Shown here piece by piece: positions 1 to 60,713 of a stretch of 64,000 bases of DNA (within the stretch, counting starts at the first letter, position 1; each line of letters opens with the position of its first letter). The notes beneath the pieces are model-generated. The model made no database searches. It saw nothing but the letters and a program-made list of their open reading frames with translations, and had not been told where the DNA came from. The position numbers and the translations under genes were made by a program. The stretch spans positions 83,328,001 through 83,392,000 of the forward strand of contig OZ024741.1 in assembly GCA_964016885.1 (NCBI GenBank), written 5' to 3'. The DNA comes from Eledone cirrhosa (lineage: Eukaryota).

Positions 1-729
1 AAGGTGTTTCCTCAAAAACCAGTATGACTCTAAAAACCGGTTTGTCTGTGTGTTTACATACAGAATAGCTGGCCACTCACAGTAAAGTGATCAGTGAAAA
101 AAACTTGGTACATCTACATATATATACGTGTGTGTATTCATATACATACTAGTATTTCAGTATACATATATGGATGTACATCTTTGACTTAATTGTTTGA
201 GCGTCAGTCATACAAAAGTGAGTTACAAACGAAACGAAATTTAATTTCGTTTCGTTATTTGTTTTTATCGTCTCCGTTGAACCGGTACTTACTCACACTC
301 TATGCAAGTTGGTCTGCCCACTACTAATTTTCATAGAAAAAGCATATAGCGATATGTGCTTTTACGATTCTCTAGAGAGGCCGGAAGATAGGTAAATATT
401 GCTGATGAGTTGTAACAACAACGAAACTAGTTCAATATTCCTTGTCTGGCTTTCTGGAGAATAGAGGAAAGGTGTTTCCTCAAAAACCAGTATGACTCTA
501 AAAACCGGTTTGTCTGTGTGTTTACATACAGAATAGCTGGCCACTCACAGTAAAGTGATCAGTGAAAAAAACTTGGTACATCTACATATGTATACGTGTG
601 TGTATTCATATACATACTAGTATTTCAGTATACATATATGGATGTACATCTTTGACTTAATTGTTTGAGCGTCAGTCATACAAAAGTGAGTTACAAACGA
701 AACGAAATTTAATTTCGTTTCGTTATTTG

Positions 730-736
<7 letters not shown>
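1..736 (+). repeat. Direct repeat with 468-bp period (1-268 = 469-736), hammerhead in the unique part, ending in (TA)n; non-autonomous PLE/retrozyme-like element
   Basis: The two copies are identical by eye except a122/g590; the window starts inside the repeat. Confidence 0.85.
395..439 (+). ncRNA. Minimal type I hammerhead ribozyme
   Basis: aatattg-CTGATGA-gttg(taacaa)caac-GAAA-ctag-TT-caatatt: 7-bp stem I, G-C closed stem II, palindromic CTAG loop III. Confidence 0.85.
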
Positions 737-774
<38 letters not shown>

Positions 775-3224: not shown

Positions 3225-3290
3225 TATTTTGTCTGAAGAGGGCATACCATATTTTTAATATGATATCCCTGAAATATATATAATGAAATA
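3225..3290 (+). ncRNA. Type I hammerhead ribozyme, family B
   Basis: tattttgt-CTGAAGA-ggg..ccct-GAAA-tatata-TA-atgaaata; palindromic loop III. Confidence 0.75.
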
Positions 3291-4397: not shown

Positions 4398-5315
4398 GTG
4401 GATTGGCAATATCGGTAGAGGTTCGAACACCACGCGTTGCAACATAGAGTTACGGCCCTCAAAGATCTGAGTTCAAATCCCGATGAGGTTAACTTTGCCT
4501 TTCATCATTATGGGGTCGATAAAATAAAGTACCAGTCACGACATTCCACTCCACCAAATTTGCTGGCCTTGTGCCTATATATAATAAACCAATATATATT
4601 AATATCTATATATTTCGGATGCAATATCAATTATCATATGATCCGTGGAAAACCTCGGAGAATGACGGACTGAAGTCTGCATGCTGGATTCAATCTCGTT
4701 CAAATTTCAACAGAGTCCAGCCGATATGTAAAAGGAAATTTATAAATATTGTAGCAGGCTCAGTTTTAGATTAGTAGCGGCAAAAGTTGGCTGGCCCTTT
4801 ATTTATTGTGCAGTCCAGTCTTTTCTGTCATTGTTGTATAGTGTGCATTGTATTTATTCATTATTATTATTCATTTTGTTTCTAATTTTTGGCACAAGGC
4901 CAGCAATTATCCCAGTGCATTACTGGTACTTTATTTTATCGACCTCGTATGGATGAAAGGCAAAGTTAACCTCGGCGGGATTTGATCTCAGAACATAATA
5001 ACACCGAGGTTAACTTTGTCTTTAATCCTTACGGGGTCGATAAAATAAAGTACCAGTAATGCACTGGGGTAATTGATGGCCTGGTGCCAAAAGTAGAAAC
5101 AATTATTATTTATTTACAAGGGTGGTTGATTGGCAGTATCGGTAGGGGGTCGGACGCCATGTTTTGTAGCATAGAGTTACGCTCCTTTAGATCTGAGTTC
5201 AAATCCCGCCGACGTTAACTTTGCCTTTCATCCTTATGGGGTCGATAAAATAAAGCACCAGTAATGCACTTGCATAAATGCCGGCCTTGTGCCAAAAAGT
5301 AGAAACAATTATTTA
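4398..5315. mobile_element. Cluster of tRNA-derived SINEs with Nin/Deu-like core (4398-4575 +, 4877-4993 -, 5003-5108 +, 5120-5315 +)
   Basis: A-box-like tggcagtatcgg, B-box gagttcaaatcc, core aactttgcctttcatcc..ggggtcgataaaataaagtaccag, tail ggccttgtgccaaaagtagaaac. Confidence 0.8.
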
Positions 5316-5766
5316 TTTACAAAACCGGGAAAAATTATCTATTAGGCCACGCTTTTTCCAATGAGTGTCGATCTTAAATATAACGTATTTTAATATTATG
5401 TTGATTTTCCTGTTGCATCTTTTCATATTAACCAACATAACTCTATCCAATAGTAATAAATATTAATAATTCAAGCTCAGCGAAAATAACTCAAATTTAG
5501 TAGTGAGCATTTAATCGAGTGGTATCTGTTTTATCGCGGGCAAGGCGGAATTTGAACTTCGGTATGAAGGAGCAGCAATTAAAAGCAAAAAATATATTTT
5601 GCTTCAAAATGAACTGTTGTTTTCATTTACCAAAGATATAGGCATTGGCAAGAAAAAATAATCTCTAAATGACTCTGAAAATGAGATTCATCTGAGATTA
5701 TTCACCCATTCACACACACACTCACATATCTACACACCTACATACCAACAGACATACACACATACA

Positions 5767-8651: not shown

Positions 8652-8658
<7 letters not shown>

Positions 8659-9194
8659 TTAGTTAAGCAAACCAAGACCACAAATTTCATAAGGAAGACA
8701 TTATTAAAAGATTGTCAACATAGTTTTAGTTTAATGTAAGGAATGTAAAGAATAATAATAATAATAATAATAATGTCCGTTTACACTTGTTTCGCTACTC
8801 CATATAATGTTTCTGGATCAAATCATTTTAGATCATTGTTGATCTGGTTCAGTTGAAGATAATTAACTTAGGTAAAATTGGAGCAGTTCATCGGAACTTC
8901 AAAAGGAATATAAATTAATGTAACAAAAGATGGTTACATGGATGCAATGTTCCATATATCTTTTGTTACCTTAATTTATATTCCTTTTGAAGTTCCGATG
9001 AACTGCTCCAATTTTACCTAATTTAATTATCTTCAACTGAACCAGATCAATAATTATAATCGATAATCAATTATAATCAATAATCAATTATTATTATTTA
9101 CATTCCTTCCATTAAACTAAAACTATGTTGACAATCTTTTAATAATGTCTTCCTTGTGAAATTTGTGGTTTTGGTTTGATTAACTAATGAATAT
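8652..9194. repeat. ~540-bp foldback (palindromic) element
   Basis: atattcattagtt...aactaatgaatat outer arms; inner arms ~8839-8934 / 8958-9052; apex ~8935-8957. Confidence 0.8.
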
Positions 9195-11689: not shown

Positions 11690-14116
11690 AAAATGCTGAC
11701 AAATTTTTCCCAGTCTAAAATAATTTAATTAGGAATAATTATAAATTAGTAATAAGTATTGGTTAGTATTCAGTTTTGGTTTTAAGGTTTTACCGATTGC
11801 GCATTTCTAATGCTTTTCAAAAATAATTTTGAGATAGAGCGCCCGTGATGTTTGCTCTAATCTGATCAGTTTTGGAAATTCTTCCTCTTTTATGTGAAAC
11901 AAGTTGCTCCAGAGGTATTAAGATTTGGTTGGTTGTTGAATGTCACGTGAATGAGTTCTATAAATTTCGCGCCAATTCGTGTTACAAAAATTCTTCTAGT
12001 CAAAACAATTATAATTGGTCGGTAGAGGTCACGTGAATGTTAAAAATTGAGTTTGCGCCAAATGTAGGTTTGTCGAAGTGTGTCCTTTTTCGCCTGATCG
12101 AGAAGTCATTGAAAAATAAGTATTTTAAGACAAATACGTGTGTGTGTGTAGTAAAGAGGTTCATTGTTGTGGTAATGGTCAGTAAGGATGTGTGTGTGAA
12201 TTGCAGTCATGTTGAAAGGTCAACAGTTCAGGTGTCTATTAAGACAAATATATATAAATATATGTGTGTGTGTGTGTGTGTAGCAGAGTGGTTCGTGGTA
12301 GAGGGATTCGGTCAGTAGGAATGTATCTGTACGTGTGTGGGGGATATGTTAACATGTTGAAAGATATTTTTCTGCTCTTGTCTTATACGGAGAAGTGTGT
12401 GTGTGTGTGTATGTCTGTTTGTATGTTAGTGTACGCGTGTGTATGTGTGTGTGTATATATGTGTGTGTGAGTGTATATGTGTGTATGTGTATGTGTGTGT
12501 GTGTGTGTGTGCGTGTGAATGGACCAGTATTTTTGTGATACTGGTAAAAATGGTGTACATTTTTCGATATTTTCAGTAATTTGCAAAAACGATCCTCTCA
12601 AAAGAACATCAAAAACATTAATAATGAAAGGGGTGAAATGATGTATAGTATTGTCATAACACCAAGGTGTGTGTGAGTGTCCAAATTGTACGTGCTGCAA
12701 GGGGAATCCATTAGGCCCTGCTGTATGGGAATACTTGTGTACAAATATATATGTGCCCATCAGTGTGCAATGCATGTGTGCGCATATGTATGTGTGTGTG
12801 TCGGCACGTTTATATCTATAGACATCAAAAGGTATGCAAATTTGTGTATATTTGTGTTGCACCATAGAACATGTGTGTTTACGTATGTCATTGTGTTTAT
12901 ATGTGGATAGAAATGTATGTAGGATGTATGCTGATTTAGGTATGTATGTTGACGTGTGTATGTTGTGGGTTCGTCTTAGGGAGAAGTGTTTAGACGGGGT
13001 CCGTATTTGTTAATAAAGTGAGATTGCTTGCTGATGCGCTGGGTGTGGGTGGCATTATCTTTAAATTTGTAGAGGGGAAAGATTTTAAAGTTGGGATGAT
13101 TTTGGGCGGGACTGGTATCAATGTTTTCACTTAGTGGTATTTTTCTGTATTCCCGTATTTTAATTTGGGATCTATGGACAGTCATGCGTTGGTGGGGCTG
13201 TTTTTAGTCTGGCCTATGTATTGTTCTCGATAACCTGAGCAAGTTAATACATATAGTAGATTTTCTGATGCGCATGTGAAATTGTGATTTACTATAAAAC
13301 GTTGTCCTTCTTTGAAATAGAATTCCGAACCATCTATTAGGTTGATGCATATGCCACAGTTGAGTCCATCGCATTTTTTTACTGTGGGTTTCGTTGTTGT
13401 GGTTGGTAGTACTTTGGCATGTGTTAGGATGTTTATCATTGACTTAGATTGTCTTTTTCTCTTTATGATATCGTGTGTTCGAAGGATTTGGTTCATTCTA
13501 TGGTCCTTTTTTAACACAGGGATGTTCTGGAGGATGGTGTCAAAGGCCTCATTGTTGAAGGGGGTTGTGTGTGGAGATGTATGGAATAGCTTTTAGTTTC
13601 GGTTGATTTACTTTAGGGTGTCTAAGGTCCTGGGTACTGACTTTTAGGGCACGTTGGATTCCATTGTCAATTAGTGATGCAGGGTCGTCCCTGCCTATGA
13701 GTGTGTCCTTTAGTTCTTGTAGCTGTAAGTAAGAGGTGTTTTTATTGGAGACTATAGTACAGATTCACTTGGCTAAGTTGTAGGGAATATTAATTTTAAC
13801 GTTTCTAGGGTGGCAAGAGTTGAAAGGAAGATATTGCTTAGAGTCTGTGGGCTTGTAGTATATGTCTGTTTCTATTATATTGTTATGAATCTTAAAGAGA
13901 ATGTTGAGGAAGGGGATTGTTGATGGCTGTATTCCATCTTAAAGTTAATATTCGTGTTGAGCCCATTTATAAGGGTGTGAAATTCTTTAAGTTTCTCGAT
14001 GTGTTCGTGCCAAAGGATGAAGCAGTCATCTAGATATCGCTTCCAGTTCTTTTCTATGTGTAAGTGGAGAGTTTTCCACTCTGCTACACACACACACACA
14101 CACACACAGACACACG

Positions 14117-14213
<97 letters not shown>

Positions 14214-14783
14214 TTGTCTTAATAGACACCTGTTCTGTTGATCTTTCAACATGACTGCAATTCACACACACATCCCTACTGACCATTATCACAACAATGA
14301 ACCTCTTTACTACACACACACACATATTTGTCTGAAAAGACTTATTTTTCAGTGACTTCTCAAACAGGCGAAAAAGGACACTCTTAGACAAACCTATATT
14401 TGGCGCAAAATCAATTTTTAACATTCACGTGACCTCTACCGACCAATAAAAATTGTTATGACTACAAGAATTTTTGCAATACGAATTGGCGCGAAATTTA
14501 TAGTACTCATTCACGTGACATTCAACAACCAACCAAATCTTAATACCTCTTGAGCCACTTTTTTCACATAAAAGATGAAGAATTTCCAAAACTGATCAGA
14601 TTAGAGCAAACATCACGGGCGCTCTATCTCAAAATTATTTTTGAAAAGCATTAGAAATGCGCAACCGGTAAAAACTAAAAACTGAAACTGAATACTAACC
14701 AATACTTATTACTAATTTATACTTATTCCTAATTAAACTATTTTTCAGTGGGAAAAAATTGTCATCATTTTCTTTTCCTTTTA

Positions 14784-15312: not shown

Positions 15313-17054
15313 GAGAGAGAGGGAGGGTGATATAAAAAGATAAATATAAAAAGATAAATACTGTCAAAAATAAAAGCAAAGAGAGGGTAGAGAAAGAAGA
15401 AAAGAAAAAATAGCCAAAATGGGGAGGGATGGAAGGAAGAAAACGAAGAAATATAAGTGGAATGAAGGAGAAGAGGGGATATAGGTATTGGTTTTTGTGG
15501 GTAATTAAAAGGGTTTAGATACAACAAGAGGGTATAAAGTCTAAGTATATGCAGTTTGTCAGTTGGTAGTAAGAGATTAAGGGTTCGATTTGCACTTGTA
15601 GTGCGAAAACTTCTCTTTGAGTCTATGGTTACAATAAATTGATCTTTCGATTTTATTTTTGAGTAACTTATTTTTCGAACTCAAGATGTGGAACAGCTCA
15701 AGGTCGCATAATCGACAGCTTCTCATACCACTCCGATATGGGGGCGCGCTCGATAACTTTTTCCACTTCAGGGTGTATTGATGATTACTTTCCCTCAGTT
15801 GCCAGGTCTTGTTTGCAAGGGTAGTTACATAACGATTCTGGGAATGTTTCATTGCGTAACGGTGTGTATACCAACGGGCTTTAAACGTATTCCCAGTCGC
15901 TCCGATGTAATACCATTTCTGGTTGTCTGATTCTACTGTGCAGTGGTAAACCAGGTTAGACTGCATACATTCATTATGTAATGGACAGGTCTCAGGTAGG
16001 TGGCTGTTACAATTCTTGTCATGGGCAACTTTGGCATTATTGGTGGGCTGCGATGCCTGTACAAGTGTGTTACGTTTTGTTTGCCTATTAGTGGGTGGTT
16101 GTGTATTAGATATTCTGTTGTGTTCAATGGTGATTGTATTGTTATTGTTGTAAATTTGTGTTCTGGTGTATCTTTTTAGCGTTAAACATATTAATGTGTG
16201 CCTCTATATTTGGTGCCGTGGAGTAAGATAGTCTAATAGATTTATTGTTAAGGATTTTGCTGTATTTATGTGAATCTGGAAAGTGCTTATTTATTATTCT
16301 AAAGAAGGTAGAGGGTAGGTTAGTACTAATATATGTGTTATATATGTGGATATACCAAATATATTTTCTACTGCGTGACTTGTTTGATTTCGATGTTTTA
16401 TTTCTATTTACCATATATTTTGTAATTCTATGCGTAAGTGCGTGTGTGCGTGTGTTTCTGGAGTTTGTGTTATGCGTGTTCGTGTGCGCTTTACGGAGGC
16501 TTTCATCCATATATTCTACTCTATCTAAGTGGCCTGCCGTGTGTAATGCGGTATTGTAGTATTCTGCATGTTCTTCGAAAATTTGTCGGTTAGACGAGAG
16601 GTGGGAGATCCTAAGGGATATGCTGCGTGGAATGGATTTAATTATGGATAGTGGGTGGTTTGAGTTACAGTTGATGTATGCTAAGTTTTCATTAATCTTG
16701 TGAAAAGGTTTTATAATTCCCGTATTTAGGTTAAGCGTCGCGTCTAGAAAGTTAACTGTTTTAGTGCTATGCTCATACATTATGCTAAGGCCTAGTTTCC
16801 CGAGAGTCTTTCTAATATTCTTACGGAGTCTTTCTATGCTCTGGTTATTCAGGTTCTTAACTAGGAGAAGGGCGTCGTCTCGGTAGATTCCACCGTGAAG
16901 GTCGCTAAACTCACTTTGTAAATGGACTATGTAAATACCTACTAAATCTGTAACTTGATCCGAGTCGTTAGCCCCCATCGTGATGTCAAAGTTATTTAAT
17001 CTATCCTTACGTTCCCAATAGGCGTTTTCAAATTTAATTATTGTTTTCCAAGCA
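14820..17054 (-). mobile_element. 5'-truncated Penelope-like element (YRDD type, Naiad-like)
   Basis: FDITMGANDS..GIYRDD..FLDATLNL..NSNHP; CNS..CPL..C..VY..YIGAT..FKARW..H..CRLC..CNHR; 1-nt frameshift at ~16142; purine/pyrimidine-skewed 3' UTR running to (TA)n at ~14820. Confidence 0.9.
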
Positions 17055-17265
17055 TCTACATGGCTGAATACAATAAATGTAATCTGTGATTTTCGTATAA
17101 TAACAACATTCGATTCGTTTCCAATTATGCAAACGAGCGTCATGTTTAAAGCCATGTCAGTAGAATGAACACTTCATGGAGTTACCCCTAACCGTACGTT
17201 GAAACTATGCATGAAACTGGCTTTCTTAACCACGGACTGGATCACAAAAAGCAATTTACTGCTTC

Positions 17266-24745: not shown

Positions 24746-24949
24746 TTAGGTATCGAGAGAGAGAAGAAGAGATAGGAGATACATGTAGTTATTTGCCAAT
24801 AGCATATGCAAAAGGTGCTAAATACTTATGCCTGCATTGTTAAATATTAGAAGTGTTAATATCTAGTGAACGAGAAAATTAGCAAAGCGGATACACATGG
24901 AGAAATATATAAAAGAGAACAAACCGTTAAAGCATGTTTATTTAAAATA

Positions 24950-24990
24950 GCTCCTACGTACGTTTCGCCCGACTGGGCTTCTCAGGGGCA
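24950..24990 (-). ncRNA. Minimal hammerhead in the inverted pLTR (CUGAGAA core)
   Basis: Minus strand: gccc-CTGAGAA-gccc(agtc)gggc-GAAA-cgtacg-TA-ggagc. Confidence 0.7.
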
Positions 24991-27900
24991 TAAACAATTA
25001 AAAAGCGTTCCTTACATGACCCCTAATGGGTTTTAGAGATAAGTTCACATCACATTCCATTCTTCGTAAAAAAGATGTATTGATTTTGCAGTAGATCAAG
25101 GGAGATAATTCTAACCGGTGTTAGAGCACTGTTCCCCAGGCTACTTTTATCCGTTATTACGGCTTTACTATTGCCGATACACGCAGAGTTAGTGATGCAA
25201 AGTTAGTTTCCAGATGTTTGTTTGCTGCACCTGCCTGCCGGGGTTGATTCATGCCGGGTCTGGGATGCATGGTTAGTTTCTGGATGTTTTTTGCAGCGCC
25301 TGCTCGCCTGGTTGTTAAGGTTTGGTGCAGGGTGATCCGGTTTACGGTTCCCACGCCTCATTCTTATTCCATCTGGAGTAAGAGATTTTTAAGCGGTGTG
25401 TACAGCTTATCGTCGTTTCTGCTCTGCTATTGATGAGCTCGTGGGGTGCCGTTATGATATAGTAAAGCTCCATGAGGCAAAGCTCGCATTTCCTCTTGAA
25501 ACTGTACGGTGCTGCTCTGCCGACAATTTCCCAGTGTGTGGAGAAGCTGATGTTTGAGTCTTTTAATGCTGTGATGTAATTCGCGAGCGAAGTGGTGCGT
25601 CTTAGTTTCTTGTTTAGCGAAAGAATGGAGATGTGTTCGAAATCTATTTTTGAACGGGCCAGAGGTAGCCCCTGTATAATGTTTAACGCTATTATGGCTA
25701 GTTACTGTGCACCTATAAATAATCCTATCAGTCAGGAAGTTTCCACTAAGGAGGCAGCATCCCATGCCACGGCAGTTGCAATTTCGTTCGCAGTCCCTTC
25801 TAGTTCCCAAGCTAAGGCTATTATTATTGCTATCTATCTTGTTATCTACGCCCCTAGACCTGTCATTGGTACCATTATAACCCACTGCGTGCAGTGTAGT
25901 ACCATTATCATTCCGCACGCCGCAGCGCCTGCATATTCCCCAGTCATGTCCCGGTTATGTTGGTTGCGGATATAGTTACTATCTTAGAAATAGATAAGTA
26001 CACAAACCCGTATGTCCCTCTGCCACCTAGCTTCTCTGTTAAGGATCACAAATGTAACTTTAATGAAAGCCCCTCTATTAGACTAATATGTCCCTCTACA
26101 TCCGATATATGTAAAACTAGTAAAGTGATCCTCGATAGAGAACTACTGGAGCTTAATATAAAAACTAAGGTCTGCCTGTGCAGCAACACCGACCAGGTCG
26201 TTGATTAGTTCACCGAGTTGCCTGCTAAACCGACCCTGAAGTTCATCCAGTTTGGCATAGATAGTTACTAACTTCAATATCACGATGGGGTCCAGTGACT
26301 CGACGCAAGCAACAGACCTGGTCGGAATATACCTCCTCCAAAGGCTTAGGGGCGTGATACCAGCCCTACAAGGAGGTGTATATAGGGACGACGCTCTGTT
26401 TACCGTTAGGAACCATAGCCCCGCAGAATAGAGAACCTTAAAAAGCACATACACAGGTTCTTCAAGACATACGGCCTATCCGTAACTGTGTACCTCAACA
26501 ACCAGGTTGTCATCTTCCTGGACGTTACCCTGGAGTTGAGTACGGGCCTATACAAGCCATACTATAAGCTCGGAGAGAGCCTTTCTTATATTAATTACCC
26601 CTCTAACCACCCAAAGCAGGCTCTCAACTCCATAGTTTATAACATCTCACATACGATCTCGAGGCTCTCCGTCAATGAGGATATCTTCAACCAAGCGGCG
26701 GATTACTACAATAAGGCCTTGCTAGGCGCCGGTTTTAACCGAAGAATCTCCTACATCCCTAATGCTAGCTCCAGAAACCACCCCTCTCAGAAGACTAATG
26801 TTATAGTAAGCCATACCTATAACCGAATACGCGGTGGCTTTGAAAGGGTCAGAAATAATAGTATAGAGAATCGCACTAAGGAACACGGCCGCAATTTCAA
26901 TTACACAAGTGATAGTATTGGTAGCTTACCACACAATAAGCACCACGCCCCCGGGGACAGTGACCACTGTAGCCTATTTGAATTATTCCCCTACTATAAC
27001 ATCAACAAAGGCGATAGCCTACTACCAACGCCTTCCAACCAGCGTCTTCCTATACAGAAGCAGAAGGAAGCCGAGTGCACCCGTGGATAAAGCGAAAGGA
27101 ACACGTAACAGGCTACAGCACAATAACATGCATAAGAACTGTCAACCTGTTAGCACAAGCCTTAGCAAACATACAAAGACACGAAATCGCCAACGCAATG
27201 TCCTATGGTTCCTTCCTCCCTACTCTCGGAGTGTGGCCTCCGACTTACCCCGGATATTCTTCGAAGCCTTAGAGAAGAACTTCCCACCCAACCATAAGTA
27301 TAGGAAAATCCTGAATATCAACAATATGAAAATATCCTTCTCTACTACTTCTAACCTAGCAGACATCATAGGAACAACTAATCACAGTAAGATCACCAAA
27401 ACACAGCACCTTAGCACCGATACACCTACACCTGACAACAACTATATCGGCCTTAACGACTCACTAGCAGAACCCAATAGTGCTGGCAACAGCCACAACA
27501 GACGCAACGAACATAACCGCGACATGACTGGGGAATATGCAGGTGACCCGTACGGGTCACCAGCCGAAAACAGAAGGCGCTGTGGCGTGCGGAATGATAA
27601 TGGTACTACTCCGCACGCAGTGGGTTATAATGGTACCAATGACAGGTGTAGGGGCATAGGTAACAACATAGATAGCAATAATAATAGCCTTAGCTTGGGA
27701 ACTAGAAGGGACTGCGACCGAAATTGCAACTGCCGTGACTGGGGACGCTGCCCCCTTAGTGGAAACTGCCTGACTGATATGGTTATTTATAGGTGCACAG
27801 TAACTAGCCATAATAGCGTTAAACATTATATAGGGGCTACCTCTGGCCCGTTCAAAAATAGATTTCGAACATATCTCCACTCTTTCGCAGAAAAGAAAGT

Positions 27901-28513
27901 AAGACACACCACTTCGCTCGCGAATTACATCACAGCATTAAAAGACTCAAACATCAGCTTCTCCACACACTGGGAAAATGTCGGCAGGGCAGCACCGTAC
28001 AGTTTCAAGAGGAAATGCGAGCTTTGCCTCATGGAGCTTAACCATATCATAACGGCACCCCCACGAGCTCATCAACAGCAGGGCAGAAACGACGATAAGC
28101 TGAACGCACCGCTTAAAAATCTCTTATTCCAGATGGAATAAAAATGAGGCGTGAGACCGTAAACCGGGTCACCCTGCACCAAACCTTAACAACCCGGCGG
28201 GCAGGCGCTACAAAAAACATCCAGAAACTAACCATGCATCCCAGACCCGGCATGAATCAACCCCGGCGGGCGGGCGCAGGAAACAAACATCTGGAAACTA
28301 ACTTTGCATCACTAACCCTGCGTGAATCGGCAATAGTAAAGCCGTAATAACGGATAAAAGTAACCTGGGGAACAGTGCTCTAACACCGGTTAGAGTTATC
28401 TCCCTTGATCTACTGCAAAATCAATACATGTTTTTTACGAAGAATGGAATGTGATGTGAACTTATCTCTAAAGCCCATTAATGGTCATGTAAGGAACGCT
28501 TTTTAATTGTTTA

Positions 28514-28555
28514 TGCCCTTGAGAAGCCCAGTCGGGCGAAACGTACGTAGGTGCT
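28514..28555 (+). ncRNA. Minimal hammerhead in the 3' pLTR (U3-A8 core)
   Basis: gccc-TTGAGAA-gccc(agtc)gggc-GAAA-cgtacg-TA-ggtgc; palindromic CGTACG loop III. Confidence 0.72.
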
Positions 28556-29554
28556 ATTTTAAATAAACATGTTTTAACGGTTTGTTCTCCTTTATATATA
28601 TCTCCACGGATATATATATATATACCTCATTTTTGTATTTGGTTTGCAAGATATTTATGTAAATATTTGTGTTGAAACAGATAATATTATAATTCGACAG
28701 GGTCATGCAGCCAATAAATCTACAAGCACCAGTTAAATTTGACTACAATTTATTATCAAAATGTTCCGTCCGTCAGTTTAATAATAAATTGAATTGAAAC
28801 TCTACTGGAACGTGTGTTTTTATTGGCAGCACCCCCCCCCCTCCCAAATATTAAAAAGAAAATAAATATATATATATATATATATATAGAAGTAGCCTCC
28901 AGGCACTTTGCCTTGTTCTCTACTCTTCGCAAATATATTTAAAAGGCACCTATTATCATCTATCATAATGTCCATTTCCTTAGAAAAAATATGTTAAAAG
29001 GTATTTAAGTATTGCCTAACTTAATATTAAAGATGTATTTAGAATATTTAAATACAGAAATTATAAAAGAACAGACTAGAAATATGTTTTCTACGAAACT
29101 TATACAACGTTTCCAGTACTTCAGTATATACAATGACGTTAAGCGTCGATAAATTTATAGGTCTGGCTAATTCCAGGGTTAATATATGAAATATCTTGTG
29201 GATGACTCTTTCACAGAGCTACTCTTCTTTGCAATTGTGGATTTGTAAATTGGGGAATACTTAATTAATGAAGTTTACAACGCTTTCTACAACAGTACAA
29301 AATGACGAAGGATTAAAAAATCGTTCAGTATCAAGTGATTGCTTTTCTATGAATTTAAACGGCTGTGAGTTGCTTATATGTACCTATGAGAGTCTCCCAC
29401 CATCCCCGCCTGTATTATTCGGACTGGAAAAGTCTCTGAGGTTGGGAAAATCCGAGGTTTCCCCTACCTCCATTTCATTTTCGTAAAAGAATGTGATATA
29501 TAATAAAGAAAGAAAATAACAGAAAAATGTATCCTACGAAAATTATAAAACATT

Positions 29555-31566: not shown

Positions 31567-31760
31567 GGTGGATTGGCAGTATCGGCAGAGAGTCGGACAC
31601 CATGCTTTGCAGCATAGAGTTACGGTCCCTTACAGTCTGAGTTCAAATCCCTCCGAGGTTAACTTTACCTTTCATCCTTACGGGGTCGATAAAATAAAGC
31701 ACCAGTAATGCCCCTCCCCCAAAATTACTGGCCTTTTGCCTGAATCGGAAACCATTATTT
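31567..31760 (+). mobile_element. Nin/Deu-core tRNA SINE
   Basis: Same family as 4398-5315. Confidence 0.85.
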
Positions 31761-31974
31761 GTAGCAGTCGACAGCTGTTACAGTTATTTTGTGAGTTTGA
31801 GATTCTCAGGTTCTGAATCTTCCAATAACCCAGCTTCGATAATTCAAAGGATATATCATGGTGGTGAGGAGGGGGCTTGTGTATGGCTTTTGCTTCATGC
31901 GTATCTGTATGCTGCTAAGTACACGTAGATGCCTGCGTGTGAACTTGCACGCATGCGTCTCTTAGTGTTATCGC

Positions 31975-33387: not shown

Positions 33388-33792
33388 TGTTATACTTTGG
33401 GAGGGTCACGTTGCTAAACAAATTCGGAAACGAAATATTTATATATTGTTCCACATAAACCTATATAGTACAGTTCTTGTTCATCTGAATAAAATATTAT
33501 ATCAAAAGGATTGCACATGTCCGTGACTATGAATTAATCCCTATGCCAATTAAATAAAACATATAATATAAAACGAAATGTAACATATAACGAAGATATG
33601 TAAATCTTACTACAAGTTATAAGGTGAAATGTCCAGCCACAGTTCGACGAAAGTCTCTTATAGTCCCACAATATATATATTCACAAATGGAAGTTTAGTA
33701 AGATCGATGTTTAGGCTGCAACCAGGCTAACGATATACAATTAGGAATATAGGAATATACAGCCAAGCACTCGATGAGGTTGGAGTAATAAC

Positions 33793-33979
33793 TGTTTCTA
33801 CTTTTGGCACAAGGCCAGCAATTACCCAGTGTATTACTGGTACTTTATTTTATCGACCCCGTAAGGATGAAAGGCAAAGTTAACCTCTGCGGGATTTGAA
33901 CTCATAATGGTAAAGTCCGTAACTCTTTGCGTCAAAGCATGGCGTCCGACCCTCTACCGATACTGCCAATCCACCGCCT
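33793..33979 (-). mobile_element. Nin/Deu-core tRNA SINE
   Basis: Reverse complement of the 4398-5315 family; short flanking duplication aggttggagtaataac. Confidence 0.85.
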
Positions 33980-35877: not shown

Positions 35878-38800
35878 AGTTGCATTTATCTTGCTTTATG
35901 TTCATACGAGTTATCACCAAGTCACAACCAGTGACCTCAAGAGACAACAAGGTCCGCCATGTTCAAGGAAGAACATACATACTCACACATGCATCTATAG
36001 TGTTTAGACTTGTGATGTACTTATATTGACAGAATCTTCCTTAGTATATGGGCAGTTCCCATTAGTACTATCTTTTGTATTTCTTCTATACGCGGGTTTC
36101 CTGGGATCTGCGATAAGTAATCATTAGACCCCTTAGGTATCATTCCCAGAGCACCTACAACCACTGGTATTGTTTTAGTTCTCAATTTCCACATTTTTCC
36201 AATTTCTATCTCCAGGTCCTTATACTTGCTCAATTTTTCAAATGTTTTTATAGATACATTCTTGTCTATTGGAACAGACATATCAATTAGCAGGCATACC
36301 CTCTTTTTAAAGTCCTTCAATATTATATCAGGTCTATTTGCATCTATTTTTCGGTCTGTTTGGATGCTAAAGTTCCACAAGATTGAGATGTGATCTTTTT
36401 CAAGTATGGGAGGTGGTTGATGCTCCCACCAATTCTTTTGATGGGGCAGGCCAAAATGCTTACACATTATCCAATGTATGTATTGTGCAGCTCTGTCATG
36501 ACTGTTTAGGTATTCGGTTGGAGCTATAGGACTGCACATTGAAATTATATGGTCAATGGTCTCTGGTTGTTTTTTGCATACACGTCATAATGGGCTGCAT
36601 CCATTTTTTATTATGTTGGCTTGGTAATTTTTTGTTGGCAGACACTGATCTTGTGCTGATATAATCAGTCCTTCAGTCTCCGATTTCAGTCCAGAGGATG
36701 CCAACCACTGATGGGTTAAAGTTTTGTCAACACCAGGATTGTTAGCTCGCTCTGGGTATTTTCCATAAAGAGGCTTTTCTTGCCATTTCTTAGCCAGTTT
36801 CTGTAGCAGTTCTTTCTTTGCAGTTACTTTTACCTGCTTTGCTTTTTCTGTGTTTTCCATTTCAGCAGTAAATGGGACTTCTGAAATTTGTAGTCCATTA
36901 CTGTATCTTTGTGCATCTTTTGTAATGGAATATGATCTTTTGATGCTTTCGTGTTTCAAAACGAGTTTGATCATCCAATCATGTGATTCCCTTAGATATG
37001 TAGATAATCCAATTGTTGCAGTTTTCAACGCAATGTCTAACTGGATTAACCCACGTCCTCCTTCTTTCCTAGGGAGATATATATATTCTATCTATATCTG
37101 CCTTAGGGTGATGCATTCTGTGCATGGTTAAGAATTTTCGAATTTTTGTATCGAGCCTACGGATCTCTGTGCTTGACCAGTTGATGACATTGTAACTGTA
37201 GGTTACTACTGGTATGGCAAGCGTGTTTATGGCATCGATCCTACTCCTTGCATTCAATTCCGTTCTTAAGATTGCTCTTACTCTGCGGTAACATTCCTTC
37301 CTTATCCTTTCCCTCATTGTCGAGTGCTTGATTCCGTCTCCTTCACAAACACCTAGATATTTGTAAGTTTTTTCTTGATCAAGTTCTCTTATCACGTTCC
37401 CCCGATCAAGATTAATGTATGAACTCTTCAGCAGCTTTCCTCTGGTGAACGTTGCTTTGGCGCATTTATCTAGTCCAAACTCCATTTTAATGTCATCACT
37501 GAACTGCTCCACAGTGGATAATAGCCCTTGCAATTGTTCATCATGTTTTGCAAATAGTTTCAGGTCATCCATGTAGAACAGGTGATTAATGGTTTTGTCA
37601 TAGACTTTATATCCATGTTTTGTTTCATTGAGCATTTTACTTAATGGTATAAGTGCGATGCAGAATAAAAGCGGTGATAAAGAGTCACCCTGAAAAATTC
37701 CACAATTAATATTAACTTCTCCAGCTTCCAGTGATTTTGTTTCACTATTCAAAAGGAGTGTCGTTGTCCATGTCTTCATACTGAATGACAAAAACCTCCT
37801 GACAACGGGGGATATTTTGAAAATCTCTAAACATTTTTCAATCCAACTGTGTGGCAAACTATCGAATGTTTTTTATAATCTATTCAAGCAATCGATAGAT
37901 TTTTGTGTCTATTATGACAATCTTCCAGTATCATTTTGTTAACCAGAAGCTGATCCTTACAGCCATATGAGCCTCGTTTACACCCTTTCTGCTCAATGGG
38001 AAATAGGTCATTTGTTATCAGGTGGTCATATGTGTATTCAGTTAGGACTGATGTTAAAATTTTATACATTTTGGTCAAGCAAGTTATCGGTCTGTAATTT
38101 TTGAGATTGTTTGTCTCATCATTCTTCGGAAGCAGGAATGTAATGCCGTTAACTAGCCATGAATGTATCTTTTCTGGCTCCTTAACTATTTCATTGTAAA
38201 GTTGGCCTAACAGCTCATGAGACTCTGTGAAGGCATTTATCCAAAAGTTTTGTATTTTGTCTTTTCCTGGGGATTTCCATTTGCTGGTTTTTCTTAGAGC
38301 CAAGCGCAACTGTTCAACTGTTATATTTTCCCATATTTGTTTCTCGAGGTGAGCTGTATCTTTCATTTGTCTGTCTATCCATGGGTCATGTATGTTATGA
38401 ACTTTTTCTTCGGCCCAGATCTTTTCCCAGAATTATTGCACTTCCTCCTTGGGTGGTATTGATTTAGCAGTTATTGTTGACTTACCAATTTTTCTGTAGA
38501 AGTTTATTTGGTTGTTTTTGAACATATTATTGTCCTTATAGAATCTAGATCGTTTTTCAAAGCGCCTTATACGAGCAGCTTTGGCCGACACTTTTTGCTT
38601 GATTATTTCTATCAGCATGTCTATGTCACATGTTGATTTTATACTGTACTTTTTTTTCAATTTTCTAAGTTTAGTTTGTTAAAATTTCTATGTCAGATCG
38701 GAGAAGGTTTATTTGGCGATTGATGTTCTCTTGCCAAGTAGATTTATTGTGGGAATTCCTTTGTTTGTTCATCTTCACTCCACATAAGTGAGTGGTGACT

Positions 38801-39810
38801 TTAGCCGATGCATAATAGAGATCATTTAAATCAGTAATGTTTAGTTTGTTTGTGATGATAATGTTTTTGAGAATTATGTTAGTCTTGTGTATTATCTTTT
38901 GGTTCTGTTTGGAGTTCTGGATCTTAGGGAGGGTGTCTCGTTGCCCCATGTCAGATTCTTTCATTTTCATCCATTCGATCATAATTTCATCCTTAAAGTT
39001 GGCAAGTTCATTCTCATTCATTTCTTTATCATTTACGATCTCATTATTTTCATTTGGAGTTTCATCCTGAGCATGCACTCCCTCCACTTTTTCGATCCTT
39101 TCTTTAATTTGTTCTGTTGCCAGTGATTCCGCCCCAACCCTGGGATTCGAAGTGTTACAGTTTACCTCGTTTTCACTGACACATGTTTCATTTTCCCTTC
39201 ACTGACGTTGTCCTAATAGCTTGATCTGATCAATTTCTATATCAGTTAGTAACTTTTTTCTTACAATATTTCTTCGTATATTGGCTAGTTTGTTACTGTC
39301 AATATAGCCTCTGTTTTCGGGATGTTTCTTTTTCCAGTTGATATATGTCTGTTCTGCATTCGATGTATTTGATGGGTAGTACATGGCAGTGTAGAAAGCC
39401 TCAAGGACTTCTTTATTATCTTTCCTTGACCATTTTTCTCTCTTTTTCTTTGGGTTTCTCGGTGGTGAGCATGGAGGGCCAACAGTAGGAGTATTCCGGT
39501 TATGGGAGGTCTCCAGCTCCGAAGTGATGGGAAGGTTTGAACCATTAGCTGATTTTTAGACCCCAGTCTGGTTCCTCTCTGAGGGACGCGGCCCTTTTTT
39601 ACCCGGGTGACGGCCGATCCTGTATGAGATTTTATCATTAGACATTTACTTTATTTTGTCGCGTTTTATCCTTATCCGCCAAGGGGTAATCATTTCGTGT
39701 TACCACTTCTAGAACGAGTGTCAACCAAGACTAGAGGGGTCGTTCTCCCCTAGAGACACGGCTATTCCCCGCCGGCCGCCATCCCGGTATTTCTTGGTCA
39801 CGGGGTTTTC
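35828..39810 (-). mobile_element. Near full-length R4/Dong-type non-LTR retrotransposon (RT, zinc finger, restriction-like endonuclease), decayed, with (TAA)n 3' end
   Basis: NYRPITCL, QKGC..GCKDQL, GIFQGDSLSPLLF, HLFYMDDLKL, GLDKC, YKYLG; HD..NRPDI..IDMSVP..EKLSKYKDL; several stops and frameshifts. Confidence 0.92.
39711..39799 (-). ncRNA. Candidate P4-less HDV-like ribozyme in the LINE 5' UTR
   Basis: P1 gaccaa/ttggtt (G.U first pair), P2 agaac/gttct, P3 gac/gtc, L3 ccctcta, J4/2 cactc. Confidence 0.4.
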
Positions 39811-41529: not shown

Positions 41530-41732
41530 TGGTGATGAATTTGTTTTGCAAGGTTTTGATATGAAATCGTGTGTTGAAACAAATATTGTTATATTTGGGG
41601 AGGGTCATATTGTTATAATATTGCCAGAAATAATAATAAAACACACTCACTCTTTGGCTAGGATTGCTTTTCGCTTCTAGTTAATGTATCTAGCAATCAA
41701 CGCTTCGCATTGATTGACCTACGATATATATA

Positions 41733-41778
<46 letters not shown>

Positions 41779-42134
41779 GTCTATTAATATTCTTTCATCA
41801 CACACCTGTGGCATCATCAGCGGTACTATTATGTTTCCTCCCATTATATTGTAGTGTCTACGCCGATGGTGTAGACAGTACAATACAACGGGAGGAAACA
41901 TAATAGTACCAATGATGATGTCAAAGGTATGTGATGAAAGAACTTTGATAGACTATTTATATATATTTATATCAGTATTTTTAACCGTTGGGCAATCAAT
42001 GACATGCATTGATTGTCCGATAAATTAAGTATGGTGAGGTAAAATATACAGAAGCCAAAACCAATAGAAACAGTGTGTTTTATTATTATTCCCGGCAATA
42101 TTATAACAATATGACCCTACCCAAATATAACAAT
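41530..42134. mobile_element. Family A foldback element
   Basis: Outer arms ~41582-41647 / 42072-42134; inner palindrome 41778-41955 with a decayed CTGATGA..GAAA motif on the minus strand (41790-41820). Confidence 0.72.
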
Positions 42135-42139
42135 ACATA

Positions 42140-42783: not shown

Positions 42784-44373
42784 AAAAGTTTGTTTTATAA
42801 ATAGAGACGTACCCATGAAAATCATACCTTATCGGTTGGAAATTCCCTGGATAGTGGAAATATATTAGGGATTATTCAAATCATTTGTGACTATGCAAAT
42901 GAATATGTAAATAATTGAAATACAACCGTTTATTTAAATGACACTGGAGAAAGAGGGAGAAGAAAGAGAGAGAGAACAAATATTAATATTACGAGAGAGA
43001 TAGAGAGAAGAAATTCACAAGAAGATGAATAGAACTCATGTAACGTTAATATGGGGGAATTTACGATTATTTAGTTGTTAACATTATTTTCTAATATATT
43101 TACTGTCATAAGTAGATAGAAAAATAAATAGATATATTAATAGAAAAATAAATATATATAAAATTAGATAGAAAAATATATGGAAAGATAAATAGATAGA
43201 AAATAGATAGATAGAAAAATAAATAGAAAAATAAATCAATAAATAGATAAATAGATAAATAGATAGAAAAATGGATAGATGGGTATATCGTGTTATAGAT
43301 AATTGTTTTAATGAGTTATGTTGGATATTGGTTTATTAATGTAATTAATGTAATTAATTAAGTTAGCTGAATTAATAAGAATATTTATATTTATATATTT
43401 TAAATTTGGAAAGATACGGAAAAAACTCCAGTTTTGTTTATTTATTCGTTAGTATGAGACTATTTTGTCAAAATAAGTATAAATGTTAAAGATATAAATG
43501 GTGAAAGATATATTTAGCCTGAATTAGTTAGTGGTTATAAATCTAATAAAAGATATTAAAAAATGTTATTAAAAATGTTATTAAAAAATATTAAAAATTC
43601 AGGGTAAATTTAAAAAAAAAAATTTATAAGAGATAAGTAAATTAAAAAAAAAATAATAAGTAATTTTTTAAAATATATGAAAAATTTAATAATAAAAAAT
43701 AAAAAATAAAGAATTAAATAAACTTAAAAAATATTAAAATTAAAATTAAAATTAAAAATTAAAATATAAAAATGTTAAAGTTAGGATCATATATGTATAT
43801 ATTTTAAGAAATTCTAAATCATATCTATAATAGTTGCTATAATTTCACTTGTTAAAATTTCTTAAAATATATACATATATGATCCTAACTTTTAATTTTT
43901 TTTATTTTAATTTTTAATTTTAATTCTAATTTTAATATTTTTTAAGTTTTTCTACTTCTTTATTTTTCATTTTTTTATTTCTTAAATTTATCATATATTT
44001 TTAAAAATTACATATTTTTAAAAATGACTTACTATTTTTTTTAAATTTACTTATCTCTTGATAAAAAATATTAATAATTCCTTGAATTATTAATATTTTT
44101 TAATATTGACGTTACATGAGTTCTATTCAACCTCTTGTGAATTTCTTCTCTCTATCTCTCTCGTAATATTAATATTTTTTTATCTCTCTCTTTCTTCTCT
44201 CTCTTTCTCCAGTGTCATTTAAATAAACGGATGTTTTTCAATTATTTACATATTCATTTGCATATTCACACATAAGTTTGAATAATCCCTAATATATTTC
44301 CACGATCCAGTGAATGTCCAACCGATAAGGTATGATTTTCATGGGTACGTCTCTATTTATAAAACAAACTTTG

Positions 44374-50623: not shown

Positions 50624-50695
50624 TTTTGTCTGAAGAGAACACATATGGCAGTTGTTATACAGCTGCCTTACGTCTTTGAAATACGTATAACAAAA
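50624..50695 (+). ncRNA. Type I hammerhead, family B-like
   Basis: ttttgt-CTGAAGA-ga..ggcagttg(ttata)cagctgcc..ttt-GAAA-tacgta-TA-acaaaa. Confidence 0.75.
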
Positions 50696-51549: not shown

Positions 51550-52100
51550 CTTATTAATTTTGTGTAAACAAGAATTTAAAAATTCAGAGATTTATTAATA
51601 AGTATGTGTCTACTATTTATAATGTGAAGAGTCTTTGTAGTACAGAGGAAACACACCCTAGATATAGACCCATTTAAATGTGGAAAAGCATGAGAGAGTT
51701 TTGACCAAGAAAGGGAGTATTCCACTTGTTTATTTCTAGTGACCAAATCAGTTCCGACAAGGTCGTGCTAGATTTGTCATCATCTCTTTTAAACGAGTGG
51801 CGATGGTTGTATCACCTTTCCTTAAATCCAGTAGCAATTGCACCAATATATCTATAAGTCTTACTACTCGTTTTTACTTCACATTGATAAACAACATTTT
51901 TCTGTAAACAGTTATTTTTCATTCTGCAATTGCAATTATTTATGTTACAATGCATTGTTCCCTCTCTGTGTCTGTGTGTCCAATGGTTTATCTCATTTAT
52001 GTTTAGGGTGCTATCCCTGTTATTCGAGTTGCTGTTTACTCCATCAGTGTTCCTGTGCTTGCAATTGTGAGTTATCTCTTTATGTTCAATTCACAGATTT
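51550..52100 (-). pseudogene. PLE GIY-YIG remnant (Naiad-like)
   Basis: Manual translation: CNCR..NCLQKNVVYQCEV..YIGAIATGFKER*YNHRHSF..TTLSELIW..CFLC..SCLHK. Confidence 0.75.
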
Positions 52101-52109
52101 CTATTGATA

Positions 52110-53879
<1,770 letters not shown>

Positions 53880-57364: not shown

Positions 57365-59640
57365 CTACTTCCAGTAGGTCCTGTCAGAAGCATCCATCTC
57401 CAACGGATCTGGCTGAATCCCCAAGAGTGACCAGCCAAGCTCATGGACGTTATTCAACCATTTTGCACGAGGTCTACCTCTGGTTCTCTTGTCGGTTGAT
57501 TTTGCTCGGAAAATCTGTCCAGCGATATTTTACTGTGACATTCTAACCACATACCAATCGTATCAGAAATGTGATCTATCAATGCGAAGAAGAAAAGCTC
57601 TACATGGAGTAACTCTCTGATCTAGGACCTACTTTTCGACCAATTGTATTCGCGATCATATGCTTTCGATCATTACCCAGGATTCATGAGCATAGGTAAG
57701 GGTTTCCGCGTATTCCAAATTGAAGATAGCCAGTTTGGCTTTTACGCCTACCTCCCTTCTGATTAGTGAATCCTGAAGCTGGCGCATTACTGCACGAGCT
57801 CCTGCAATGTTTGCACATAATCCAGGCCCCTGCCTTCCATCACTGGTGATCAGGGCGCCGAAATACTTGCAATTCTCTACCTGCTTCAGAAGATCTCAAT
57901 TCACATGTAGAGTGCACTGCGCAAGCTCCCTTGAGAGGACGACTATCTCAGTTTTCGCAGAATTGATTTTAATTCCAGCATGCAGCACTCGTAATCAAAC
58001 ATATCAAGTGCAATTTGAAGATAACCGTCTGCCGAGTTAAGTAGCCAGATATTTAGCTTAAACTTTACCGGGGCGGCTTAACAAGATCCCTCTGTAATTG
58101 GAACAATCTCTCCTGTCACCCCTTTTGAAAATTGGGATTATCGCTCCCGATTGCCATTGCTTAAGTGCCTTTCTACAGATCCAGGCCACTCGGGACATAC
58201 GAGTCAACCAGAGAACATCTTCTCTATTTAATGCTTTTAACGTCTCATGTCGAATTTCATCTTCCCCAGCGGCTTTGCCACATTTTATCCCTTTAACTGC
58301 TCTTGTGACCTCAGCCAATGGGAGATTACTCACCACTCCCAGATACACCTCGTGTACATTCGAAGATGATGTTGTGATCAAGTTTAAGATATTAGCAAAG
58401 TATTCTCTCCACTTCGCGAGGATGCACCTCTCTGGAGACTGGAGAACCCCAGATGCGTTCTTGATAGCAGGTGTGGAGGAGGGCTTCGTATTAGGAAGTT
58501 AACTAATGATCTGCCACAAAACTTTATTTGCTGATCTGAAGTCAGATTCCAACTTAAATCGAAGTCCTCCCATGTCATAACTTTGAACGGTTTTACTGTC
58601 TCTGTTGCGGTTTCTCTTGCCTGCTCGTACCAAAAGTGCGAGAAGGAGGATTTATTTCCAAGCCAAGCCTTGTAAGCCTCCTTCTTCGCTCGGATGGCAT
58701 CTTTGACCACTCATTCAACCAAGGTGTCCTTCCTGTCATCCGGTGCATGAGACAGCTGAAAAAGAAACTGCTACGTTGAACAATCCCAACTTCTCAACTT
58801 TCTCTGTTTGCTAAGAGAGTTCCTGAAATTGGATGCAATAGTATCTGTATACATGGTCCTGACTTTCTTATCCATCGATGCTTCCCACTTATCCTTTTGG
58901 GCTTCTTTGGCTTTAGGAAGACTCAGCTTGCAGGTAACTCAATGGTGACCAGTTGACAACGCAGCGCCTCTTTTAACATGAATATCCAGCATAAAATCAA
59001 AGAGACCAGTGACGGGAACAAAATCAATTATTGATCTCTGTCCCTGATTCCCCTTATAACAAGTATATTTATGGATGTCTCTGTGCTGGAAGGTGTTCAT
59101 AATAGTGCGTTCAGTGCTAATTCGTAATTAGATGAAGGTTGCCATTCCTTCCTTTCCATGTCAGCACGTCAGTGCCAACATGTGCATTGAAGTCCCCCAT
59201 CAGGATATATGTATTAGTCTTAACTACATCTCACGCTGCAGTGACGACTTTATCCAGGAAGGACCTGTATTCAGACTCCTTGGTTGGTGCATAAGTTTGC
59301 ACCACCTACAGAAACCTATCTTTCAGCCTAAGCTTCAAGAAGCAAATCATCCATCCTAATGGTATAGAGTCCTTAACGCATTATGATAAACAGGGTCTTT
59401 TGAGTATCCCCACTCCTGCATGTGAAGTCATTTCTGGCGCCACACTTAAATAGTGGGGTTTCCATCCCCCATCTAAATCTACAGTATCAGAGCTACGAAA
59501 CTGTGTTGTGGAAAACTCGACTATATCTAGCCGTTAGCATCTAGCCTCCTCCACCAGTTCTGCTGCTTATCTCTAAGAGTTGTGAAGTTCCAGGTTCCAA
59601 CTGTCAATATTTGCTCCCCTCTGGATTCAAGTGGGGTCTC
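57365..59640 (-). mobile_element. Decayed RTE-clade LINE (APE plus RT; Expander/Rex3-like)
   Basis: LTVGTWNFTTL (APE start, ~59590); GKAAGEDEIR..IPIFKRGDRRDCSNYRGI..PGKV; central RT deleted; many stops. Confidence 0.85.
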
Positions 59641-60456
59641 GGGGTCGCAGGACCATCGCCAGTTTTTGCAGGATGAAATTGAGACTGCAATATATTCTTT
59701 TTAACAGAACCCGCTATCTAAGGTCTGAATGCATCCCTTTTAACCCGCGCGAAGGGTGATGCGATATCGTTCTTCTTTGTTTTCCTCGTCATATTGCAGT
59801 TTCAGTTTTAGTTGTCTTATTCGTGTAAGTCCCCAATCTGGTACTTTGCCAAACCCGCGAAGAATAGGCTTTTTTACGGAGGGAAAAGAGAGAATCTAAA
59901 AAAGTTGATAGAAGGGAAAGGGAGAAGGAAGAAGTAAACCCAACACATGTTTGGACAGTGTGTCTCAGCTGAGACACAGGGGAAGATGGCGAAAGCATTG
60001 CCGCGGATAAAAGCATATGAAACCCTCTGCATCAGTTATTCTACCTCACGAGACGCCTGGCACAGGCGAGATGCACTTCTCCCCATTTTAGACAATGATC
60101 GAAATTTATAGTGAATGGGTTTTCAAATCGTCAAACATCTATAGTCTATATAGTATAGTGTCAAGCCTCTAGTAGCGTAATTGTCTCTTGAGTGATGCAT
60201 TCTTCCTTTTAAAAAATCACACATAAAGATATCGTTGGATAAATGATTAATGGCGGTGAATATAATTAAAGAAGTGCAGTCGTAAATACACATACATTTT
60301 AGCTGACTGTGAATGGCTAACTAAAACTCTTACATTTCCTACCCCACTTCTCTGTCTCCCCCCCCCCCCATCTCGCTTTCTCTCTCATGCAAGCTCCCTC
60401 ACCGCCACACACTTTCGGTGGCAGCAGATGAATTGAAAATGGCTCTAGATACAAAT

Positions 60457-60642
60457 AATTGTTTCTACTTTTGGCACAAGGCCAGCAATTATTCAGTGTA
60501 TTACTGGTACTTTATTTTATCGACCCCGTAAGGATGAAAGGCAAAGTTGACCTAGGCGGGATTTGAACTCAGAATAGCAAGGGCTGTAACTCTATGCGTC
60601 AAAGCATGGCGTCCAACCCTCTACCGATACTGCCAAGCCACC
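60457..60642 (-). mobile_element. Nin/Deu-core tRNA SINE
   Basis: Family consensus; flanking duplication tctagatacaaataat. Confidence 0.85.
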
Positions 60643-60713
60643 ACCATCTAGATACAAATAATGCAAAACATATTGGTTTCTATTCGTCATTTCACAATGG
60701 CTATTTTGTATCA

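Follow-up and report, generated by a model that had tools for sequence, protein, structure and literature searches.

Hammerhead-bearing tandem repeats are common in animals, so that one more would be modest news in itself. Those described as metazoan non-LTR retrozymes measure 220-245 bp in Acropora and 350-390 bp in Mytilus, with Rtz331 and Rtz353 in the axolotl (PMC7229834). As described by Cervera 2014 (PMC4209133), the canonical hammerheads of such repeats and retrozymes have a 6-bp helix I, a 4-bp helix II, interacting loops and a short palindromic helix III, and the minimal hammerheads of Penelope-like elements (PLEs) have a long helix II, a short helix I and an extra unpaired base 5' of stem II; canonical hammerheads are also reported there from Selaginella PLEs. 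A compact stem II is also found in some Hydra-clade hammerheads, and U at the cleavage site is common in the Hydra-clade tables (both PMC8557442). The axolotl hammerhead HHR_Amex1 was reported to cleave poorly alone and efficiently as a dimer, and RtcB to be far more efficient than self-ligation in vitro (PMC7229834).

As to mobilisation, animal retrozyme repeats are described as showing no motif that points to a mobilising partner (PMC7761336), and phylogenetic evidence on the question has come from Xenopus, where one of nine predicted retrozyme dimers was cleaved in vitro and the other eight were uncleaved (Li, Clavereau and Pollet 2026, 10.64898/2026.07.22.740005). Partial tandems are the typical structure of PLE insertions and trouble short-read assemblies, and Hydra-clade PLE families are listed with an insertion preference for (TA)n (PMC8557442, with File S1 for the preference). 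The reverse transcriptase (RT) of an anole PLE cuts AT-rich DNA and starts inside its own RNA at a stem-loop, and cleavage by the PAc hammerhead was dispensable for insertion in vitro (Frangieh 2024, PMC11167929). No description of a cephalopod retrozyme was found in the literature searched, including PMC7761336, PMC6155905, PMC3846280 and PMC8490949, although supplements in this literature may list some, and the main text of a 2026 repeat annotation of Octopus vulgaris contains neither "ribozyme" nor "retrozyme". Here we describe a repeat of Eledone cirrhosa that is probably a retrozyme of this kind.

The repeat unit and its hammerhead

Bases 1-268 of the window (the whole 64-kb stretch of DNA analysed) recur at 469-736 with 267 of 268 bases identical (BLAST E 3e-137), the sole mismatch being A122 versus G590, and 468 is the only head-to-tail offset in the range 400-519 with more than 150 of 260 matches. 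Base 268 leads into 200 bases that are present once (269-468), and base 736 leads directly into (TA)19. The G+C content of the unit is 36% (168/468). TRF did not call the repeat at its 1.57 visible copies, and no further copy or homologue of the unit was found within the 64-kb window, where the nhmmer matches were TA/CA-rich stretches only. The first-pass annotation had recorded the repeat with its single difference, the lack of a credible ORF, a 3' hairpin at 228-256 and an end in (TA)n, all of which the analysis confirmed. Its "partial terminal duplication" says more than can be claimed, as the left boundary of the repeat is the edge of the window at base 1; the 1.57 units are accordingly a lower bound, and the "fraction" is an edge effect until shown otherwise. 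The features of the locus are the following.

1..268, plus strand: upstream repeat copy with its 3' part visible, 267/268 identical to 469-736; left boundary at or beyond the window edge
269..736, plus strand: one complete 468-bp non-coding unit, from the junction to the (TA)n end (offset 468; MFE -158.6, z -9.5; no frame above 60 aa)
291..296, plus strand: 6-bp closing helix with 686-691 across the 736/269 junction (pair probability 0.90)
367..462, plus strand: full hammerhead domain, its core capping an interrupted stem of about 28 bp that is formed by 367-401 and 433-462 (pair probability 0.84-0.93 in the circular fold; HH9)
395..439, plus strand: type I hammerhead core, comprising stem I, CUGAUGA, stem II with its loop, GAAA, helix III and GUU (descriptor against 100 shuffles)
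426..431, plus strand: helix III, the palindrome ACUAGU; in the monomer one pair capped by a palindromic tetraloop, between two copies a 6-bp duplex of -4.8 kcal/mol
432..433, plus strand: predicted self-cleavage site after GUU and predicted ligation junction of a monomer circle (descriptor)
576..647, plus strand: long TA/CA-rich hairpin with a copy at 108-179; -28.7 kcal/mol for the G590 copy against -22.5 kcal/mol for the A122 copy
696..724, plus strand: 13-bp hairpin with a 3-nt loop, 12 nt before the 3' end, with a copy at 228-256 (fold; sequence)
734..771, no strand assigned: (TA)19 microsatellite, probable insertion target, with a 3-nt TAT overlap with the repeat end (TRF; sequence)

Within the hammerhead, stem I pairs 395-401 with 433-439 (7 bp), the core CTGATGA lies at 402-408, stem II at 409-422 and GAAA at 423-426. 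The type I descriptor matched six times in the 64-kb window itself, compared with 0.01 times on average in 100 dinucleotide shuffles, and none of the 100 shuffled windows contained a match at the stem quality of the 395-439 hammerhead. The Rfam model Hammerhead_HH9 (RF02275) aligned to 384-455 with 37.7 bits (E 2.9e-7 in 3 kb, 6.1e-6 in 64 kb), which is below its gathering score of 52 bits; no Rfam match reached gathering, and of the 61 matches that Rfam gives for the window at E<=0.05, none but the 395-439 motif is a hammerhead. The HH9 alignment spans the full 77 positions with every model pair formed, including the distal stem I, and gives the unit a 6-bp stem I, a 4x3 internal loop, a distal stem, a 4-bp stem II and a 6-nt loop, with the loop letters UA, U.C and AA.AA kept in register. 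Set against the minimal type of PLEs, helix I has 7 bp plus an extension, helix II has 4-5 bp, and there is no extra base 5' of stem II. Judged by its sequence, the ribozyme is of the canonical extended type with a loop 1/loop 2 architecture and a putative tertiary contact, which favours a retrozyme over an ordinary PLE pLTR. The "textbook minimal hammerhead" first assigned to 395-439 is a hammerhead by the type I descriptor, but its extended, looped stem I, its 6-nt loop 2 and the HH9 alignment show that it is not minimal.

The weak palindromic helix III predicts, by analogy, that cleavage would take place in a dimer. The 468-nt circle that had been read from the visible DNA does not follow from it, since one visible hammerhead with such a helix III cannot release a monomer alone. 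The visible DNA therefore needs a partner motif upstream, and for a 468-nt circle this second hammerhead would be expected to begin some 67 bases before the window does.

Coding capacity, predicted fold and age

The longest stop-to-stop frame of the unit has 60 aa on either strand, whether the unit is read as linear or round the circle. The tested frames had no Pfam match, 1-736 contains no RT or GIY-YIG ORF and 269-468 no remnant of either, and no relatives of the unit were found in phages or plasmids. For a 57-aa frame that spans the junction, none of 374 pattern matches in GTDB genome contigs was confirmed, and a set of 5.8 billion proteins contained no near-identical protein. The 60-aa minus-strand frame had three matches among 1.84 billion representatives, two of them to long proteins, with a summed identity of 29% spread across 20 and 7 short stretches, and the third with no passing stretch; these short and scattered stretches were read as repeat-sum noise. 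Two short motifs of the unit were absent from the PLE consensus files of Craig 2021.

Several other assignments were considered and rejected. A MITE or Helentron was dismissed for lack of terminal or subterminal inverted repeats (best 7/10, 10/14 and 12/20 between the unit ends), and a tRNA-derived polymerase III SINE of the Sm-alpha type for lack of a tRNA and an A box, with a B-box-like match at chance level and three T4+ runs. Rolling-circle translation was rejected because, although 468 is a multiple of 3, every frame contains stops. A donor-like motif at 218/686 and a branch point with an acceptor-like motif at 324-336 flank the 268/269 junction and recall the intron of the Penelope pLTR, but the donor and the branch/acceptor motifs each occur about 0.55 times per kb per strand throughout the window, that is, at chance level. 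Octamer-like (302) and B-box-like (430) motifs are likewise at chance level, and Rfam miRNA matches on TA-rich hairpins fall well short of the gathering scores and turn up again at many TA/CA microsatellites.

As a circular monomer (433-736 joined to 269-432), the unit is predicted to fold with an MFE of -152 kcal/mol (z -9.1 against 60 shuffles) and 67% of its bases paired, a strong fold built from numerous short helices. Keeping the ribozyme core single-stranded would cost 1.5 kcal/mol in this circular monomer, and both hammerhead motifs retain the ribozyme-on-stem fold in a modelled dimer; in the MFE fold itself, 402-404, which belong to the core, are paired with 428-430, and the internal loop takes another form than in HH9. 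The models thus predict that the monomer is stable and self-paired and leaves its ribozyme accessible. The plus strand exceeds the minus strand in stability by 37 kcal/mol, and the minus strand also beats its own shuffles (z -6.8). Among 63 background windows, four fold better than the unit, each relative to its own shuffles, and in all four this is due to one DNA palindrome of 46-77 bp; the longest helix of the unit has 13 bp. Three hammerhead-bearing PLE ends used as controls gave z scores of +0.2, -1.1 (unstructured) and -6.6 (50273-50740, structured), the first being the 468 nt 3' of the stop codon of a coding PLE in the window. The helix of 291-296 with 686-691, whose arms lie within about 22 and 45 nt of the junction, closes the unit; as it is short and forms in the linear unit too, it is weak evidence. 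The 13-bp hairpin at 696-724 may act in cis to set where reverse transcription starts.

In the long TA/CA-rich hairpin, G590 pairs with C633, and A122 leaves an A-C mismatch that costs 6 kcal/mol. ADAR prefers A-C mismatches. The A122/G590 difference may have arisen by later mutation, through an error of the RT or of the consensus within a TA-rich run, or from A-to-I editing recorded as G. A single difference across 268 bases corresponds to about 0.5 My (0.01-2.9 My, Poisson limits) if the octopus rate applies (JC 0.09 = 25 My, PMC13282606). The recent activity read earlier from near identity goes further than this, since near identity would give a loosely young age under that rate; homogenisation within a tandem could give the same identity and reset the clock.

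The (TA)n end and neighbouring elements

The window is rich in microsatellites (103 TRF rows, 46 TA tracts), and the chance that the repeat end abuts such a TA tract is about 0.005. (TA)>=8 follows within 260 nt downstream in five of the seven other hammerhead cores tested, against 16% of random positions, although two inverted pairs are among these seven, which are thus not independent cases. The window contains broken RT and GIY-YIG frames of the PLE type, for example at 15577-17173 (minus strand) and 26419-28141 (plus strand), with RT motifs that by eye resemble the Hydra-clade alignment, including Hydra-1_Obim; Pfam did not recognise these frames, and a homologue search with 26867-28138 found nothing. 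In one coding PLE of the window, the non-coding 3' sequence is about 470 nt long, so that 468 ORF-free bases are compatible with a PLE end. Homologues of the unit were absent from the rest of the window, which thus yielded no parent PLE.

Most of the other hammerheads in the window have a long or bulged stem II, and none was matched by Rfam at E<=0.05. Hammerheads and other elements observed alongside the repeat are as follows.

1793 (-), 3109 (-), 3233 (+), 32785 (+), 42775 (-), 44382 (+), 50630 (+) and 28519 (+): other hammerhead-like motifs from descriptor scans, that at 42775 chosen by eye from 23 loose descriptor matches
1793 (-), 3109 (-)/3233 (+), 32785 (+), 42775 (-)/44382 (+) and 50630 (+): hammerheads of the PLE type with a long stem II and palindromic helix III, several of them in head-to-head inverted pairs between (TA)n tracts; those at 3233 and 44382 are one family (78% over 261 nt)
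28513..28556, plus strand: hammerhead variant with palindromic helix III and the U3-A8 core covariation described for Schistosoma PLEs (PMC4209133), some 60 nt upstream of the (TA)n in which a Hydra-like PLE ends
24891..28613: broken PLE with RT at 26419-27090 and thumb/GIY-YIG at 26867-28141, a duplicated or inserted segment in the linker, and a flanking 1-kb inverted copy of its own 3' part (94% identity)
15577..17173, minus strand: PLE remnant with RT and GIY-YIG
13182..14261, minus strand: pieces of a CxxC-linker GIY-YIG and of an RT, Neptune-like by eye, inside inverted arms 11669-12282/14179-14792
51812..52413, plus strand: GIY-YIG pieces of a PLE remnant
36021..39555, minus strand: long broken non-LTR retrotransposon (RVT_1 E 2.5e-18)
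58058..58710, minus strand: second RT fragment
4398..5320, 31567..31763, 33787..33978 and 60453..60645: MITE-like fold-back family of about 195 bp, 82-92% identity, at least five copies
8652..9194, 41584..42135 and 43579..44105: imperfect palindromes of about 550 bp

Readings of the locus and comparison with known systems

Sequence and computation together yield a head-to-tail unit of less than 50% G+C, a type I hammerhead with loop 1/loop 2 anatomy, no coding capacity, a strong fold with an open core and a (TA)n end. On this evidence we consider it likely that the 468-bp repeat is a non-autonomous non-LTR retrozyme mobilised by PLE enzymes. The explanation first offered, a retrozyme or PLE-type footprint, is supported by the type I hammerhead, the folded non-coding unit, the head-to-tail arrangement, the (TA)n and the PLE-rich surroundings, with the circle as a predicted step. 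Against the retrozyme stand the 1.57 units and one hammerhead visible, the absence of a further copy in the window, the HH9 score below gathering, the partial pairing of the core in the MFE fold, the structure found in the minus strand and in one PLE-end control, the compact or canonical hammerheads of some PLEs, the uncleaved Xenopus dimers and the dispensable cleavage of PAc. Since Li et al. 2026 argue that animal retrozymes are themselves non-autonomous derivatives of PLEs, a circle and a non-autonomous PLE are not exclusive.

Among the alternatives, the one that survives best, though we regard it as unlikely, is an ordinary partial tandem of a coding PLE, in which 269-736 would be the last 468 bases (3' UTR/pLTR with hammerhead) of a longer element. 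Reverse transcription would have halted at 269 and gone on from the 3' end of a second template, one that extends upstream of the window and may be coding; the length of 468 would be accidental, and no circle would be involved. Such tandems are what PLE insertions typically leave (PMC8557442); 1-736 has the form of a partial tandem at (TA)n, and both copies share their end base. Many PLE ends in the window also carry a hammerhead about 100-250 nt before (TA)n, a coding PLE there has 3' non-coding sequence of matching length, and one PLE-end control is also well folded. An autonomous EN+ PLE would, however, be expected to show an RT/GIY-YIG ORF and a minimal hammerhead, neither of which is present in 1-736. 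The extended loop 1/loop 2 hammerhead differs from the long-stem-II PLE type of the other window motifs, 269-468 lacks any GIY-YIG or RT remnant, nhmmer similarity to the rest of the window is limited to TA/CA-rich stretches, and a helix closes the unit close to its junction on both sides (about 22 and 45 nt).

A duplication at the DNA level is less probable still. Here a solo hammerhead retro-copy beside a fragile (TA)n would have been duplicated by slippage or unequal crossover into a small satellite, a course that agrees with the right breakpoint at (TA)n, of which the window has 46 tracts, with near identity as the mark of a recent local event, and with the local amplification of PLE ends into tandem repeats proposed by Li et al. 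2026. The left breakpoint, however, would have to coincide by chance with the border of a folded domain that is complete in itself, and the palindrome in helix III is useful only if the element is normally tandem. An assembly artefact, in which a contig start or haplotype overlap doubled 268 bases, is very improbable: the repeat starts exactly at window base 1, the single mismatch could be allelic and PLE tandems are a known difficulty of short-read assemblies (PMC8557442), but the 268/269 junction is clean, non-microsatellite and exactly at the 3' end of the element, the window contains no N, an overlap artefact is not expected to respect element ends, and the hammerhead and fold would be real even then.

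For the retrozyme mobilised by PLE enzymes, the following course may be proposed. RNA polymerase II would read through at least two units; the three T4+ runs in the unit argue against polymerase III. Two hammerheads would then join by their palindromic helix III and cleave successive units at 432/433, which would release a 468-nt monomer (433-736 joined to 269-432) with its ends held together in stem I, and a host ligase would close it. A PLE endonuclease would nick (TA)n, the TA end would anneal to the UAU that comes shortly after the 13-bp hairpin, and the PLE reverse transcriptase would initiate within the RNA, 304 nt past the cleavage site, with the cDNA running through the intact hammerhead for more than one unit length. 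Given an insertion end 304 nt past the cleavage site and an intact hammerhead, the template would be a circle or an uncut multimer, or would have been crossed by a seamless jump. The full version, namely a young, active cephalopod-type retrozyme with a circle cleaved as a dimer, a fixed RT start 12 nt after the 13-bp hairpin and priming from nicked (TA)n, is put forward tentatively, as a possibility that is rather unlikely in its entirety. If true, it would link the unit to those Hydra/Neptune PLE enzymes of its own genome that target (TA)n, and would name both the missing partner and the cis signal for the copying of animal ribozyme circles. A fixed, hairpin-adjacent end at (TA)n throughout the family would make the question of enzyme and signal testable with purified PLE protein.

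Compared with EN+ PLEs of the Hydra and Neptune clades (PMC8557442, PMC4209133, PMC11167929), the locus shares the partial tandem, the sense hammerhead upstream of the 3' end, the (TA)n target, U at the cleavage site and a 3' end near a stem-loop, but it differs in its extended hammerhead and in having no RT/GIY-YIG ORF. Its hammerhead also lies about 330 nt from the end, as against about 100-250 nt for most of its window neighbours. With HH9 (RF02275) and the Schistosoma Sm-alpha type it has in common the type I fold, the internal loop of stem I, the 6-nt loop 2 and the model pairs; different from HH9, its helix III lacks the 5-nt loop, its cleavage base is U rather than C, it scores 37.7 against 52 bits, and it lies in a repeat, whereas HH9 is a lone conserved intronic motif.

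The Xenopus retrozymes of Li et al. 2026 are, like this unit, non-autonomous tandems with a type I hammerhead and co-occurring PLEs, and their reported range of 51-972 bp includes 468 bp. Their definition there asks for two consecutive units with complete hammerheads, where one is visible here, and the Xenopus repeats are homologous to pLTRs of named PLEs, in contrast to the window, which holds no parent PLE. Compared with the metazoan non-LTR retrozymes of Cervera and de la Pena 2020 (PMC7229834), the present unit, whose expression, cleavage and circle are predictions, is at 468 bp slightly larger than their 150-450 bp. Most invertebrate retrozymes are reported to cleave as monomers (PMC7761336), different from the weak, dimer-type helix III found here, and the passages compared make no mention of a 3' end fixed at (TA)n behind a hairpin. 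The unit resembles the retrozymes of PMC7229834 in being short, AT-rich, non-coding and head-to-tail with one canonical type I hammerhead, in a highly self-paired predicted circle whose ribozyme is free to fold, in the presence of PLEs in the same genome and, as in the axolotl HHR_Amex1, in a helix III of one pair plus a palindromic tetraloop.
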